Assembly (NCBI GenBank): GCA_963708295.1
Contig: CAVPSJ010000004.1
Span: forward strand, 544,001-608,000
Direction: 5' to 3'
Origin: an uncultured delta proteobacterium
GTDB lineage: Bacteria; Desulfobacterota; BSN033; UBA1163
Length of the DNA stretch: 64,000 nucleotides
Shown: piece by piece, positions 1-15,595 of the stretch
How positions within the stretch are numbered: the stretch's first letter is position 1
How the letters are laid out: each line of letters begins with the position of its first letter
Program-made: the position numbers and the translations under genes
The notes under the pieces: generated by a model
Told to the model about the DNA's origin: nothing
What the model saw: only the letters and a program-made list of their open reading frames with translations
Database searches by the model: none

Positions 1-177
1 TACATTATCGCCATGCTTTTTCTTCTGTTTGATATCGAGGTCGTTTTCCTCTACCCGTGGGCGGTGGTTTTCAAAGAATTTAAGGTCTTTGCCTTTATCT
101 CCATGGCGGTCTTTATTGGAATCTTGCTCATCGCGTATGTCTACATCTGGAAAAAAGGAGCATTGGAATGGGAATAG
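1..177 (+). CDS. nuoA: NADH-quinone oxidoreductase subunit A, 3' part (runs off window)
   Basis: Manual frame 1 translation [22 protein letters not shown]...[15 protein letters not shown] and WKKGALEW motifs; overlaps nuoB start. Confidence 0.95.
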
Positions 178-674
178 AAACTTATCTTGAAAAAACCCCT
201 TTGATGCCCGCCTTAGATTGGATCGTCAACTGGGGACGAAAATATTCGATCTGGCCAGTGACCTTTGGTTTAGCCTGCTGCGCCTTGGAAATGATGGTTG
301 CCAGTATGGCGAACTGGGATATTGCTCGATTCGGTTCAGAGGTCTTCCGACCCTCTCCTCGACAATCGGACTTGATGATCGTGGCAGGAACCCTGACCAA
401 AAAGATGGCCCCCATGGTTAAGCGCATCTACGAACAGATGCCAGAGCCCAAGTGGGTCATCGCGTTTGGAGCCTGTGCCTGCTCGGGTGGAATCTTCAAA
501 ACATACAGCGTCGTTCAAGGAGTGGACCAGATTATACCCGTCGATTTCTATGTTCCGGGCTGTCCCCCTAAACCGGAGGCATTGCTGGCAGCGCTGGTGA
601 AACTTCAGAAGAAGATCGAGACCGAGAGCCTGTTGGATCGAAAGAATGTTCGAAGTACCCTTGAAATGAAATAG
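168..674 (+). CDS. nuoB: NADH-quinone oxidoreductase subunit B
   Basis: [27 protein letters not shown] and YVPGCPP N2-cluster motifs. Confidence 0.97.
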
Positions 675-718
675 ATTTTATATGACGGATTCATCACTCA
701 TGAACTGTGAAAATTATA

Positions 719-765
719 AATTCCCCCTCGCCCCCCCTTTAGTAAAGGAGAGTTGGGGGATTTGG
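719..765. repeat. REP-like palindrome, CCCCCTTT..AAAGG family
   Basis: aattccccctcgccccccctttagtaaaggagagttgggggattt; related copies at 9064, 12321, 40197, 42915. Confidence 0.75.
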
Positions 766-782
766 GAAGGGAAGGAAAGGCA

Positions 783-1271
783 ATGACCGAGATCAATTTC
801 ACCATAAAGAAATTAAAAGAAAGATTTGTTAATTCTAATTTAGAGGTGACGACTTTTCGCGGAGAAGTCACCGTGACGGTATCGAAAAAAGAGATTTTTG
901 AAATCTGTAAATTTCTCCATTCGGACCCAGATCTCCAGTACCGCCTCCTCACCGATCTCTGTGGCCTCGACTTCTTCCCAGAAACCCCCCGTTTTGGAGC
1001 CGTCTACCATCTTTGTTCACTGAAGGGCAATCAACGGCTGAGGGTAAAGACGAGGGTCGGAGAGATGGAATCGATTCCAAGCGTGGAATCGATCTGGAAG
1101 GTAGCAAACTGGTATGAACGGGAGGCCTATGACCTCTTCGGGATTCGTTTCGAAAATCATCCTGACCTGAGAAGAATTCTACTCTGGGAGGGTTATGAAG
1201 GCCACCCTTTAAGGAAAGACTACCCCGCGGAAGGGCCGGATTTCGATAAACCTTTTGTCCCCGAGGTTTGA
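783..1271 (+). CDS. nuoC: NADH-quinone oxidoreductase subunit C
   Basis: [26 protein letters not shown] and GHPLRKDYP motifs; ATG at 783 after AAGG RBS. Confidence 0.96.
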
Positions 1272-1379
1272 CCCTTCGGCGTCCTGCAAGCCTCGCCTTC
1301 TCGGGCGGCCCGGTAAAGCTAGCGCTCAGGGTCAACCCTGAGCAAATTACGGCCTTCAGGCCATTATGTCGAATGGGGT
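1272..1379. repeat. Palindromic intergenic repeat, CCCTTCG..CTCAGGGT/ACCCTGAG..GTCGAA family
   Basis: Central gctcagggt-ca-accctgagc hairpin with flanking cccttcg and cgaatggg; related sequence at 37419-37480. Confidence 0.65.
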
Positions 1380-12322: not shown

Positions 12323-12416
12323 AATCCCCCTCAATCCCCCTTTTCCAAAGGGGGAGGTTGCTCCTCCCTTTCGTAAAGCCTGCCTGCCGGTAGGCATGGG
12401 AGGCTGGGAGGGATTT
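12321..12416. repeat. Double REP-like palindrome with inserted CCTGCCTGCCGGTAGGCA palindrome
   Basis: atccccctcaatccccctttt-cc-aaaggggga ... ctccctttcgtaaag[cctgcctgccggtaggcat]gggaggctgggagggattt. Confidence 0.7.
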
Positions 12417-12436
12417 AGGAAAAAGGAGTCGATTTC

Positions 12437-13984
12437 ATGACAATTCTGGGTATCCCCATTCTATCACTACTCATTTTCTTTCCAATCTTGGGGGCCGTTG
12501 TTCTCCTCTTCATCAACAAAGAGAATGCGACGGCGATCCGGTGGATCGCTCTCATCTTTGCGTTCGTCGAATTTATTTTCTCGCTGCCCCTCTTCTTCTC
12601 ATTCGATCCCAAGACAGCCGCGATGCAATTCGTGGAGGATTGGTGGTGGATTCAGAGTTATGGGATCAGTTACAAATTGGGCATCGATGGAATCAGTCTC
12701 CTCCTGGTCCTCCTGACCACCTTTTTGACGATCCTTTGCATCCTGTGCTCCTGGACTGCCATCACCTTCCGGGTCAAAGAATTCATGATTTCGTTCCTCT
12801 TCCTGGAGACAGGAATGCTGGGTGCCCTGGTGGCCCTCGATCTCGTCCTTTTCTATGTCTTCTGGGAAGTGATGCTCATTCCGATGTACCTCCTCATCGG
12901 TGTCTGGGGTGATCCCAAGAGACGGATCTATGCAGCCGTCAAGTTCTTCCTCTTTACCATGGCCGGAAGCGTGCTGATGCTGGTTGCGATCTTGGCCGTC
13001 TATTTTCTCAATCAGAAGGCAACGGGCGTCTCCACCTTTGACGTGCTCGAACTCTATAAGCTGGGATTGCCCGTTGGAACGCAGTACTGGCTCTTCGGGG
13101 CCTTTGCTCTGGCCTTTGCCATCAAAGTTCCCATGTTTCCATTTCACACCTGGTTGCCAGATGCCCATACCGAGGCGCCGACCGCTGGAAGTGTGATCCT
13201 GGCAGGTGTCTTGTTGAAGATGGGAACTTACGGATTCATCCGATTTGCCATACCGCTGTTTCCGAAGGCAGCCGTTGATCTTTTACCCATCGTCTCCGTT
13301 CTGGCGATCGTAGGGATCATCTACGGCGCATTGGTCTCGATGATGCAGCCCGATCTGAAGCGACTGGTTGCCTTTTCGAGCGTGAGCCATCTGGGATACG
13401 TCATGCTCGGAATGTTCGCCTTCAATACGCAAGGCATCCAGGGATCGATCTATCAGATGCTCAACCACGGCATCAGCACGGGGTCCCTCTTTTTGATCGT
13501 CGGGATGATCTATGAGCGCCGTCACACACGGTTGATCGCCGACTTTGGAGGACTCTCGAAGGTGATGCCAATCTATGCTGTCTTCTTTATGATCGTGACC
13601 CTCTCGTCGATCGGCCTGCCGGGGACGAATGGGTTTGTAGGAGAGTTTCTGATCCTTCTCGGGGCATTTCAGTCCAATGCTGTCTACGGGGTATTGGCCA
13701 CCACAGGCGTTATCCTGGGAGCCGCTTACATGCTGTGGATGTTTCAGAGGGTGATGTTTGGGAAGATCACCCGGCCTGAAAATGAAAAGCTAAAAGACCT
13801 CAATGCTCGAGAGATTGCCATCCTCGTCCCGATGGTCCTCATGATCTTCCTCATGGGAATCTATCCCAAACTTTTCCTCAGCAAGATGGATGCCAGCGTG
13901 GAGAAGTTTATAAAGGATTTCAAGGGAAGGGTTGAAATGAAAGCAGACCTTCCCTCGCAAAAGGTGGCAGAAATCAAAAAATAA
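12437..13984 (+). CDS. nuoM: NADH-quinone oxidoreductase subunit M
   Basis: [42 protein letters not shown]. Confidence 0.97.
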
Positions 13985-14119
13985 AAATTCGAAACACGAA
14001 ATCCGAAATTCGAAACAAATTCGAATGACCGAAAAAAATTCAAAACTGGCAAAAAGAGGACGTTTGAAAAATTTGATATTTGGATTTGTTTCGGGTTTCG
14101 ATATTCGAATTTCGGATTT
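13985..14119. repeat. Heptamer-periodic inverted repeat, copy 3
   Basis: aaattcgaaacacgaaatccgaaattcgaaacaa ... ttgtttcgggtttcgatattcgaatttcggattt. Confidence 0.85.
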
Positions 14120-14143
14120 ATGAGTTAGTGACGGAGGGTTTTA

Positions 14144-15595
14144 ATGAGAATACCAGAAATTGACCTTTATCTCATTGCACCGGAGATTATCATCACTGCT
14201 TTCGGTTTTTTGGTGCTTCTGTTGGATGTCTTTTTACCCAAAGGGGAGAGAAAGAGTTACCTCGGAGTGATCAGCCTCGTCGGGATCGTTTTCGCCGGTA
14301 TTTATACTTTCCCGCAGATGGGGTCTATCCGATCGGGTTTTGAAGGAATGTTCGTCTCGGATGGCTATGCACTCTTTTTTAAGCTCACTTTTCTGATCAT
14401 TGCCTTTTTGACCGTCCTGATCTCCATGGGTTACATCCACAGGGAAATGATCGAGTTTGGGGAATATTATGCCTTGATCCTTTTTGCAACCCTCGGGATG
14501 ATGCTGATGGCAGCCGGATCCCACCTGATCACCATCTTCCTCGGGCTGGAAACGATGTCCATTTCCATCTACGTCCTGGCCGGAATGATGCGAGAGGACA
14601 AGAGGTCCGTGGAAGCGGCGTTGAAATATTTTCTGCTGGGCGCCTTTGCCACAGGATTCCTCCTCTATGGCATTGCCCTGATCTATGGCGCCACAGGAAC
14701 CCTTTATCTGAAAGACATCGCTGCTTATGTCGCTTCTAAGAACCTGTTAAGAAGCCCGATGCTCCTGATGAGCCTTGTTTTTCTCACCATTGGTTTTGGT
14801 TTCAAGATTGCTTCTGTTCCTTTCCATATGTGGACGCCTGATGTCTATGAAGGCGCTCCGACTTCTATTACTGCTTTTATGGCCACGGGGGTGAAGGCAG
14901 CTGCTTTTTCAGCATTGGTGAGGGTATTCTTCTCCGCCTTGCCGGCCTTTCGTGCGGATTGGACCTCGATCATGTGGGTGATTTGCGTGGCGACGATGAC
15001 GGTCGGAAATATTGTGGCGATCTCCCAGACCAATATCAAACGGATGCTCGCTTACTCGAGCATCGCTCATGCGGGCTACATTCTGGTCGCCTTTGTTGCG
15101 GGAAACGATTTAGGGACTTCGGGCATCCTTTTCTATCTCATGACCTATGCCTTCATGAACATCGGCGCCTTTACCGTGGTCATCCTTCTCGGGAAGAAGG
15201 GAGAAGAGAATACCCTGATTAGTGATTATGCGGGGATTGGGTTCAAATACCCGCTCCTGGCTGCCTCCATGACCATCTTTCTCCTCTCCATGGCAGGCAT
15301 TCCTCCTCTGGGAGGATTCATGGCCAAATTCTATATCTTCAGCGCAGCGGTAAAATCAAAATTTTATTGGCTGGCCATAATCGGGGTCCTGAATAGTGCT
15401 GTGTCGGTTTACTACTATCTCCGGGTCACCGTGCTGATGTATTTCAGAGAATCCGAGCGGGAGATCACCGGCCTCCAATTCTCGCCCGCTTCTGTGCTCG
15501 CATTGATTTTGGCCGTCATCGGAACGCTTTACTTGGGAATCTTTCCCGCCAACGTCCTCTCCTTAGCTCAACGATCGATTGCGGGGTTGATGTAA
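14144..15595 (+). CDS. nuoN: NADH-quinone oxidoreductase subunit N
   Basis: EAALKYFLLG, FKIASVPFHMWTPDVYEGAP, KRMLAYSSIAHAGY. Confidence 0.97.
   Translation: MRIPEIDLYLIAPEIIITAFGFLVLLLDVFLPKGERKSYLGVISLVGIVFAGIYTFPQMGSIRSGFEGMFVSDGYALFFKLTFLIIAFLTVLISMGYIHREMIEFGEYYALILFATLGMMLMAAGSHLITIFLGLETMSISIYVLAGMMREDKRSVEAALKYFLLGAFATGFLLYGIALIYGATGTLYLKDIAAYVASKNLLRSPMLLMSLVFLTIGFGFKIASVPFHMWTPDVYEGAPTSITAFMATGVKAAAFSALVRVFFSALPAFRADWTSIMWVICVATMTVGNIVAISQTNIKRMLAYSSIAHAGYILVAFVAGNDLGTSGILFYLMTYAFMNIGAFTVVILLGKKGEENTLISDYAGIGFKYPLLAASMTIFLLSMAGIPPLGGFMAKFYIFSAAVKSKFYWLAIIGVLNSAVSVYYYLRVTVLMYFRESEREITGLQFSPASVLALILAVIGTLYLGIFPANVLSLAQRSIAGLM

Follow-up and report, generated by a model that had tools for sequence, protein, structure and literature searches.

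The first 15.6 kb of a 64,000-nucleotide stretch of DNA from an uncultured delta proteobacterium (GenBank assembly GCA_963708295.1, contig CAVPSJ010000004.1, positions 544,001 to 608,000 of the forward strand; hereafter the window) form a single plus-strand gene row that encodes a real, conserved and apparently undescribed variant of complex I. All 11 core subunits (NuoA, B, C, D, H, I, J, K, L, M and N) are encoded in one operon, as assigned with Pfam and NCBIfam, and the place of the N-module (NuoE, NuoF and NuoG) between nuoD and nuoH is occupied by genes for a 650-residue flavoprotein and a large iron-sulphur (Fe-S) subunit of about 875 residues (G* below). The module appears to originate from a formate dehydrogenase (FDH). 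As for its function, we infer a reversible, proton-coupled NADP(H):quinone oxidoreductase (NADP(H), nicotinamide adenine dinucleotide phosphate) derived from an FDH-linked complex I, a reading that is given a probability of roughly 0.55.

Architecture of the module and its operon

The gene order nuoA-B-C-D-flavoprotein-G*-H to N, proposed in an initial annotation from the letters and open reading frames (ORFs) of the window, was borne out by assignment of the ORFs with Pfam and NCBIfam; NuoD, NuoB and NuoI lie above the curated NCBIfam cut-offs, and the intergenic gaps of the operon range from -10 to 279 bases. The same annotation had seen neither nuoE nor a NuoF that binds flavin mononucleotide (FMN) and NADH. 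This holds for the operon, among whose ORFs there is no match to 2Fe-2S_thioredx (the NuoE family, PF01257; 0 matches) or to Complex1_51K, and none of the 10 genome-wide matches to the FMN/NADH domain of NuoF (PF01512) falls inside it. It does not hold for the genome, which encodes both subunits in a canonical operon and in a divergent cluster upstream of the window. The canonical operon, a second complex I locus on another contig (locus L100, G000:C19:68001-88000, at 4877-19998, G000 being the window genome), comprises nuoA upstream of a fused nuoBCD (853 aa), followed by nuoE, nuoF, nuoG and nuoH-N.

The pair had initially been labelled an SfrBA-type NADPH oxidoreductase that replaces NuoEFG within the operon. 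A GltD-type flavoprotein and an FdhA/NuoG-like protein do stand in the place of the N-module, but the pair is better described as an FdhB/FdhA-type formate dehydrogenase pair, because JGI gives many members of the flavoprotein cluster the family name 'formate dehydrogenase beta subunit' or 'formate dehydrogenase (NADP+) beta subunit' and because the alignment of the large subunit with FdsA runs over its whole length. The arrival of the module may have been a replacement of NuoEFG or an insertion into an 11-subunit operon.

The FdhB-like flavoprotein

The flavoprotein (2712-4664, plus strand) was characterised with Pfam, structure-library matches, an AlphaFold2 model and Foldseek. Its Pfam domains are NADH_4Fe-4S (residues 62-144), Fer4_20 (163-242) and Pyr_redox_2 (257-557), in agreement with the earlier description of a NuoF C-terminal cluster fused to a GltD/NfnB-type module for flavin adenine dinucleotide (FAD). 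The protein thus has the make-up of FdhB, namely a NuoF C-terminal 4Fe-4S domain with a GltD-like FAD/NADP(H) domain. Across 30 aligned homologues the cluster cysteines C76, C79, C82 and C122 are invariant, as are the two motifs reported at the outset, GGGNVA-D (396-403) and Y420-R421-R422; the arginine pair of the latter may, as the initial annotation has it, read the 2'-phosphate. The protein also carries a C-terminal CxxC tail. No NCBIfam model reaches its cut-off for this protein, the best being PRK12814 ('putative NADPH-dependent glutamate synthase small subunit') at 457 bits against 916.

The nearest solved structures to the GltD part and its tail are NfnA (9n5u_A, E 3e-114), 9bov_A, StnC (8oh5_C), NfnB (4ylf_B) and NfnL (5jca_L), the sequence matches to NfnA, StnC, NfnL and NfnB spanning E values of 3e-114 to 8e-89; for residues 17-160 the matches are to C-terminal portions of HydB/NuoF-type subunits. 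An AlphaFold2 model built with the 30 homologues (mean predicted local distance difference test 87.6, predicted template modelling score 0.88) returned NfnA, StnC, NfnL and NfnB proteins as the top seven Foldseek matches, and a stretch that includes the second dinucleotide fold aligns without gaps with all four of these proteins. The title of the NfnL structure entry (5jca) reads 'NADP(H) bound'.

In StnC, according to PMC10482914, the GltD domain binds FAD and NADPH, the FAD is non-bifurcating and the FdhF domain is inactive; K170 is a ligand of the proximal cluster and is contrasted with the glutamate of bifurcating NfnB. At the position of K170, counted by hand in the alignment, a lysine is found in the flavoprotein (WLKRF), StnC (QLKSF) and both NfnA proteins, and a glutamate in NfnB (RLERF). 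Because of this lysine, and because StnC does not bifurcate electrons at its FAD, the flavin site of the window protein is read as that of a plain NADPH dehydrogenase. The median pairwise ratio of non-synonymous to synonymous substitution rates (dN/dS) for the flavoprotein is 0.044 (28 pairs), a rough value given a synonymous divergence of about 1.2, as are the dN/dS values below.

The large subunit

The gene of G* (4839-7465, plus strand) was identified by Pfam, NCBIfam and alignments, and lacks one base near 5457; the approximately 875-aa protein exists in the window only as two overlapping frames, 4839-5534 and 5276-7465. The N-terminal frame contains Fer2_4, NADH-G_4Fe-4S_3 (the His-ligated cluster) and a two-cluster ferredoxin fold including Fer4_Nqo3, which gives G* the NuoG-type N-terminal Fe-S chain (2Fe-2S, His-ligated 4Fe-4S, 4Fe-4S). 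The C-terminal frame contains the 4Fe-4S domain of molybdenum enzymes, a molybdopterin domain and an MGD-binding domain. An intact orthologue of 875 aa (L002:7109-9736) is 97% and 90% identical to the two parts encoded in the window. Its residues 3-867 align with residues 26-926 of Rhodobacter capsulatus FdsA (E 3e-162), and YjgC and Methylobacterium Fdh1A are further matches; among NuoG proteins of complex I the best E value is 2e-74.

The active-site positions of FdsA are not retained. Its 'TCARVCHSP' faces 'NGARLSSGS' in G*, and its 'NPLRGQNNVQG' faces 'YPLLTQNNAQG'; we take the cysteine of ARVCHSP to be the molybdenum/tungsten ligand (selenocysteine, Sec, in Escherichia coli FdhH), the histidine its catalytic neighbour and the arginine of the second motif the one that binds the substrate. 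In all 25 G* rows (the window and 24 loci with a readable embedded gene) the three residues are replaced, by S/A, by S/N/G and by L/H/A/V/F, respectively, and no alternative ligand is conserved at these positions. An active formate dehydrogenase, which the near-cut-off score of the C-terminal frame against TIGR01591 (formate dehydrogenase alpha; 661.9 bits, cut-off 666.25) might suggest, was ruled out for G* on this ground, since it retains none of the three residues (Cys/Sec, His and Arg) and the replacements are not themselves conserved.

The ligands for five Fe-S clusters are, for their part, invariant in 20 of 20 orthologues: C34, C45, C48 and C62; H94, C98, C101 and C107; C147, C150, C153 and C157; C185, C188, C191 and C195; and C221, C224, C228 and C257. 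Median pairwise dN/dS among 11 orthologues is 0.088 (30 pairs), and 0.094 (33 pairs) for the molybdopterin domain alone. Because the Fe-S ligands are invariant and dN/dS is low, with the active site lost, the sequences point to G* as a maintained protein under purifying selection from which the formate chemistry has gone. A loss of formate chemistry with retention of the chain is what NuoG itself is thought to represent.

Conservation across the order

The GTDB order to which the window belongs consists of one family, with 21 genera and 55 species genomes. The flavoprotein was found in 48 of these genomes at 73-100% identity, including all 26 with a completeness of 90% or more and a contamination of 5% or less, and the NuoD type of the window (at least 80% identity) likewise in 48. 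When the flavoprotein and NuoD tables were joined by eye, the flavoprotein was found to adjoin this nuoD type in 43 of the 48 flavoprotein-bearing genomes, the two genes being no more than about 400 bases apart on one contig, an adjacency that supports the synteny that the initial annotation had proposed to survey; in the remaining five (G022, G029, G033, G040 and G052) the genes lie on separate contigs or NuoD was not found. Seven genomes are without the flavoprotein. Six of them are also without this NuoD type, five of these six being 70-84% complete and the sixth (G013, 91% complete) having the canonical NuoD type only; the seventh (G014, 64% complete) holds a broken piece of the window's NuoD type.

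A NuoD search at an E value of 1e-100 or better retrieved 49 genomes, G013 through its canonical type only. For most of the order, the flavoprotein-linked complex I is the only complex I found by this search, since the second, canonical NuoBCD type (49-55% identical) occurs in just 17 of the 55 genomes. The NuoD of the window is 50% identical to the canonical NuoBCD of its own genome and 61-69% identical to that of nuo-linked loci outside the order.

Gene orders and origin of the module

Variation in the operon was followed in 80 loci fetched by the flavoprotein and compared by tblastn with the window's proteins. Two variants were observed. Variant a (21 loci and the window) has nuoBCD, the flavoprotein, G* and nuoHIJ, and variant b (13 loci) has nuoBCD, the flavoprotein and nuoH with no embedded large subunit. 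Nine variant-b loci extend far enough upstream to show what directly precedes nuoA, and in each of them this is a full-length FdhA whose N-terminus is NuoG-like and which contains an in-frame stop (9/9); the stop is a TGA at the ligand position ('CARL*HSST') in the five of five loci checked (L011, L021, L024, L031 and L059).

Outside the order, the nuo-linked pair occurs in three gene orders. In L067/L101 and L102, from Syntrophobacterales metagenome-assembled genomes, nuoABCD is followed by the flavoprotein, FdhA and nuoH; the FdhA ligand is Sec in L101 and Cys in L102 ('CARLCHAST'), and both keep 'PLRGQNNVQG'. In L104 and L125 the flavoprotein and FdhA follow nuoH to nuoN, with Sec in L104 and the Arg motif in both (in L125 the Arg motif alone was checked). 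L120, L126 and L127 have the embedded order of the window, and the C-terminal part of their large subunit is only 25-27% identical to that of G* with neither active-site motif, apparently a second, independent degeneration of a nuo-embedded FdhA. This large subunit (at 8940-11300 in L120) is about 785 aa long and has retained its NuoG-like N-terminus. In other Thermodesulfobacteriota (L052, L055/L056, L128, L129 and L136) the flavoprotein and FdhA occur as free pairs, with no nuo genes beside them, and in Syntrophomonadaceae and other Bacillota the flavoprotein gene is followed by one for a G-like protein with a C-terminal part 22-29% identical.

Trees were quick IQ-TREE searches with approximate likelihood-ratio (SH-aLRT) support only. 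In a flavoprotein tree of 57 rows, the 35 rows of the order form a clade (99), and variant b is a single clade (99) nested among variant-a rows. In a second flavoprotein tree of 37 rows, which includes the loci outside the order and in which the order was thinned to 16 rows, all 23 nuo-linked rows lie on one side of a branch (88) and are nested among the free pairs, first L129 and then L052 with L128 (99). Trees of the FdhA part were built from 44 and from 37 rows, with the NuoG of the window genome as root; in them, degenerate G* forms a clade (95) with a long stem of about 0.6, and the 13 catalytic nuo-linked FdhA rows of all three gene orders form another (100); the two clades stand in a polytomy. 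The phylogeny suggested as a check in the initial annotation thus did not place the proteins with ordinary NuoF or NuoG, the own NuoG being a very long outgroup branch.

Taken as a history, these data can be read as a single recruitment of an FdhB/FdhA pair to a Nuo core followed by movement within the operon and by loss of the FdhA chemistry at least twice. Because the sister nuo operons keep a Sec/Cys FdhA with the Arg motif, the nuo-linked family probably began formate-linked, the window's version with its catalytically dead FdhA being derived. Living lineages would then record an FdhA turning into a NuoG-like wire, a step long proposed for the origin of NuoG.

Proposed function

The enzyme would be a 13-subunit complex I made of the 11 ordinary core subunits and a two-protein, FDH-derived module in the place of the N-module. 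NADPH would donate a hydride to the FAD of the FdhB-like flavoprotein at its GltD/StnC-type, non-bifurcating site, and electrons would then pass over two 4Fe-4S clusters to the NuoF-type 4Fe-4S cluster and into the NuoG-like N-terminal chain of G*, which would act as wire and scaffold. From G* the path would lead through NuoI and NuoB to the quinone site of NuoD/NuoH, the quinone step being coupled to proton translocation by NuoL, NuoM and NuoN. All cluster ligands for the chain from FAD to quinone are present in the flavoprotein (including the Fer4_20 cysteines), G*, NuoI and NuoB. By analogy with NuoF on NuoG and FdsB on FdsA, the NuoF-type domain of the flavoprotein would sit on the N-terminus of G*. 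A dedicated NADPH:quinone oxidoreductase had been put forward in the initial annotation, a role that is, as a whole, inferred.

The reaction would be reversible. Standard potentials are about -320 mV for NADP+/NADPH and about -75 mV for menaquinone, which makes either direction feasible, as set by the proton gradient. In relatives of syntrophs the enzyme may run backward, with the proton gradient lifting electrons from quinol to NADP+, and one may speculate that such a reverse mode would solve the re-oxidation of quinol after acyl-CoA or succinate oxidation. The kind of quinone and the direction taken in vivo are presumed here.

Complex I is generally regarded as an NADH enzyme, and the known exceptions use ferredoxin, flavodoxin or F420H2. 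If NADP(H) entered through a port of the complex itself, the anabolic nucleotide pool would be linked directly to the quinone pool and to the proton gradient; in the sister lineages, a formate port would provide such a link for the chief carrier of electrons between species in methanogenic communities. Since the module is near-universal in the order, it would shape models of energy metabolism for these uncultured anaerobes. A broader and decidedly more tentative proposal is that of an undescribed complex I family in Thermodesulfobacteriota, in which the port is a whole NADP-type FDH, catalytic or, in at least two lineages, reduced to a wire, and which is run in reverse towards NADP+ or CO2. 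If true, these enzymes of syntrophic or otherwise energy-starved anaerobes would draw on the proton gradient to raise electrons from quinol to NADP+ or CO2 (giving formate), and would be a device, long sought, by which electrons from the oxidation of acyl-CoA or succinate are transported in reverse.

Several observations weigh against the NADP(H):quinone reading. The branch that unites the nuo-linked flavoproteins has only moderate support, coming from a quick search and falling below the starred level. The choice of NADPH over NADH as substrate follows from the likeness of the motif to those of NADP(H) enzymes, and the docking of G* on NuoI/NuoCD in the manner of NuoG is drawn by analogy. Of four menaquinone marker families searched in the 91%-complete genome, none gave a match above its cut-off, a result not read as absence: PF02621 (MqnA/D) had no match, and the best scores were 88 bits against 102 for TIGR00751 (menA), 131 against 343 for TIGR01929 (menB) and 24.5 against 428 for TIGR03699 (MqnC). 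At least eight NuoF homologues encoded in the genome could act in trans. Formate may still be a substrate in close relatives, as upstream FdhF-like genes suggest, and the base missing from the G* gene could be a true lesion of this strain; both are taken up below.

Alternative explanations

A complex that is still linked to formate is an unlikely alternative. In this scheme a separate FdhF or FdhA, encoded upstream of nuoA in some relatives or elsewhere in the genome, would bind to the flavoprotein and G* in the way that FdhF is attached in formate hydrogenlyase. The result would be a proton-coupled enzyme, either a formate:quinone oxidoreductase or a CO2 reductase, for which NADP(H) would be a second port. 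The catalytic FdhA of L067/L101, L102 and L104 (with the Arg motif also in L125) and that of the nine variant-b loci are consistent with it, and SelA is present in the window genome. Directly upstream of nuoA, a shorter Sec FdhF-like gene without the NuoG-like N-terminus occurs in 5 of the 13 extended variant-a loci (L107, L108, L122, L123 and L124; by tblastn also in L009 and L014). It was, however, not found there in 7 of the 13 (L103, L105, L109, L115, L116, L119 and L121), L114 being ambiguous, nor directly upstream of nuoA in the window genome, and these FdhF-like genes form, together with an Anaerolineae gene, a clade apart from nuo-linked FdhA.

The window genome does hold a Sec FdhA ('CARL*HSSTVAGLA', 'NPLRGQSN') about 4 kb upstream of nuoA on the other strand, split by two frameshifts. 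It belongs to a divergent cluster that begins about 580 bases upstream of nuoA (L099 6919-13241, minus strand), together with a NuoE-like protein of 154 aa and an 829-aa protein in which a full NuoF (FMN domain, SLBB, 4Fe-4S) is fused to a GltD-like FAD domain. From its domains, such a cluster would encode a formate dehydrogenase that has an FMN/NADH-type site as well as one of the GltD/NADPH type and that recalls Bfu-type enzymes. This Sec FdhA thus has a cluster of its own, which was not found upstream of nuoA in 24 extended loci, and the operon of the window itself encodes no catalytic FDH; both points speak against the formate-linked scheme.

It is likewise improbable that the pair is a soluble, SfrAB-like NADPH oxidoreductase that is merely co-transcribed with an 11-subunit, ferredoxin- or flavodoxin-dependent complex I and communicates with it through a diffusible carrier. 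Free FdhB/FdhA pairs are common and are the nearest outgroups (L052, L128, L129 and L055), 11-subunit complexes with soluble donors are known (PMC11238625), and docking on the Nuo core is argued by analogy. Against this, the pair lies between nuoD and nuoH, the nuoEFG place in canonical operons; the linkage persists across three gene orders, with both nuo-linked proteins forming clades of their own; and G* retains the whole NuoG-like chain under purifying selection after the loss of catalysis.

The possibility that the module is broken in the window strain, with a real deletion in G* and an operon that is decaying or run as an 11-subunit enzyme, is quite unlikely. The one-base deletion is present in the assembly, and the canonical nuo operon of the same genome could take over. 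The missing base follows a run of four cytosines (CCCC) near 5457, where L001, L002, L003 and L010 read AGCCCCATCAAAGG. Public contigs aligned to 2600-7600 come from relatives 90-99% alike and not from the window strain; the two that bridge or abut the site differ from the window there, one X3 contig (depth 4.4) having a base inserted behind 5452 and one X1 contig continuing past 5456 with ATCAAAGG, the reading of the relatives. Both halves of G* are otherwise intact. An indel error of the assembly is favoured because the neighbouring Sec FdhA has two similar frameshifts besides its TGA and because loci of other long-read-style assemblies (L001 and L012) are split at other places.

A bifurcating or confurcating flavoprotein as in NfnAB, splitting NADPH electrons between the quinone path and, for example, ferredoxin, is very improbable: the GltD-like fold is indeed the bifurcating unit of NfnAB, and the C-terminal CxxC tail has no assigned role, but the cluster-ligand position holds the lysine of non-bifurcating StnC and not the glutamate of NfnB (PMC10482914), and the operon encodes, by Pfam, no second flavin or NfnA/NfnS-like partner.

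Comparison with known systems

The window's complex shares with complexes that carry the canonical N-module the place between nuoD and nuoH, the NuoF-type 4Fe-4S domain, the NuoG-type N-terminal chain and the 11 ordinary core subunits. It differs in the lack of NuoE and of the FMN/NADH domain, in its GltD-type FAD site and in a large subunit that is nearer to FdsA than to NuoG.

A close parallel is with NADP-dependent FdhAB, which we take to be the Moorella thermoacetica type. Both consist of two subunits, a beta subunit with a NuoF cluster and a GltD-like part and an alpha subunit with a NuoG-like N-terminus and a molybdopterin domain, and free pairs with Sec FdhA are the nearest outgroups of the window pair; the Moorella enzyme was likened by description. 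In contrast to these enzymes, the alpha subunit of the window is without Cys/Sec, His and Arg, and the pair lies within a nuo operon.

FdsABG (R. capsulatus, 6tg9, and Cupriavidus; NAD-dependent) provides, in FdsA, the protein that aligns end to end with G*. This enzyme is soluble, FdsB is a full NuoF with FMN, FdsG is NuoE-like, and FdsA keeps the CH and R residues.

In Geobacter sulfurreducens, SfrB is described as GltD-like and SfrA as NuoG/FdhA-like (PMC7483475), hence a pair of the same kind, likened here by domain descriptions rather than by sequences. SfrAB is soluble and listed separately from the Nuo subunits (PMC7894505), whereas the window pair is encoded between nuoD and nuoH and not apart from the nuo genes.

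StnABC/NfnABC yield the best sequence and fold matches. In them, too, a GltD-like FAD and NADPH domain feeds the Fe-S chain of a NuoG-like protein with an inactive FdhF-like domain, and they share with the flavoprotein the lysine at the K170 position of StnC. Their GltD domain is, however, inserted in a single NuoG-like chain, and they possess a bifurcating core of NuoF-like (FMN) and NuoE-like subunits. In the window, the domains are split differently, the operon lacks the FMN and NuoE-like subunits, and the acceptor would be a membrane complex.

The principle of a common membrane engine with an exchangeable input is shared with the 11-subunit NDH-1 with ferredoxin, Fpo with FpoF, formate hydrogenlyase and mbx-like enzymes. 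Operons of 11-subunit complex I-like enzymes hold no input subunits, unlike that of the window with its two between nuoD and nuoH. According to PMC4758237, mbx-like operons of Thermotoga and proteobacteria encode a gltD-related flavoprotein that takes the place of NuoI in an Mrp-Mbx-type complex; the window differs in keeping NuoI and in having, in a true Nuo operon, a flavoprotein with a NuoF-type cluster and an FdhA-derived partner in the place of NuoEFG.

In the passages available, no such module is mentioned in reviews and surveys of complex I variants (PMC4758237; bioRxiv 10.1101/2025.03.13.643058; PMC11238625); StnC is compared with SfrB, SfrA and NuoG outside a nuo context (PMC7483475), and genome papers on Smithellaceae, Desulfurivibrio, Thermosulfurimonas and Desulfotignum note only that nuoEFG is missing. 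A full-text literature search, which covered the main text of papers as far as accessible, returned no nuo operon in which a flavoprotein of the FdhB/GltD type lies between nuoD and nuoH.

Core genes and other features of the window

The remaining genes of the operon all lie on the plus strand. The 3' end of nuoA (1-177) was assigned by translation, as the gene begins 180 bases before the window; the whole gene is seen in the DNA directly upstream (L099, G000:C4:530001-544400) at 13821-14177 (Oxidored_q4, E 8e-37). It is followed by nuoB (168-674; the cluster N2 subunit, Oxidored_q6, NuoB models above cut-off, CC..C..C motifs read by eye), nuoC (753-1271; Complex1_30kDa, E 5e-46) and nuoD (1366-2556; the quinone-site subunit, TIGR01962 at 569.5 bits against a cut-off of 459), in which the quinone-site His (QHPATHG) and Tyr (DRLDY) were read by eye. 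Beyond the module lie nuoH (7612-8631; NADHdh, E 4e-118), nuoI (8647-9060; Pfam and NCBIfam, two 4Fe-4S clusters with 8 cysteines invariant in 20 orthologues), nuoJ (9340-9867; Oxidored_q3), nuoK (9938-10267; Oxidored_q2), nuoL (10331-12322; Proton_antipo_M/N/C), nuoM (12437-13984; Proton_antipo_M) and nuoN (14144-15595; Proton_antipo_M).

Promoter and terminator scans of the operon gave counts not above those of shuffled sequences, and Rfam had no match within it; a terminator-like hairpin with a T run 3' of nuoN (15731-15763, plus strand) is a consensus match only. Contigs from an RNA library (X19) span parts of both module genes, and carry-over of DNA is possible, hence they were not counted as expression.

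The gap between the two module genes (4665-4838) holds a palindromic repeat of about 140 nt that folds into a hairpin (folding z -3.66). A copy with 73% identity to this element lies in the gap between nuoD and the flavoprotein gene (2572-2693; C4:546572-546693) and a third between nuoM and nuoN (13985-14119; C4:557985-558119). The repeat, which looks like an element of the REP/MITE (repetitive extragenic palindrome/miniature inverted-repeat transposable element) type, has 49 matches genome-wide, one of them within the canonical nuo operon on C19. Public metagenome contigs pile up on it to a depth 20-100x that of the flanks, with a spike at 4604-4937.

Downstream of the operon, a 674-aa cytoplasmic-type molybdopterin oxidoreductase is encoded on the minus strand (19372-21396; Fe4S4, Molybdopterin, Molydop_binding) and is only 24% identical to the FdhF-like genes of the relatives. 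Rfam matches to group II intron domains D1-D4 lie on the minus strand at 21787-22075 (RF02001, 145 bits; RF01998, 58 bits), with no reverse-transcriptase ORF among the scanned ORFs near them. Farther along, 45775-50400 and 51726-59025 encode a Cache-HAMP histidine kinase, an OmpR-type regulator and a hybrid kinase, then a pst-type ABC transporter, PhoU and a PHO4-family transporter, an ordinary two-component and phosphate-transport set that is unrelated to the complex I module.

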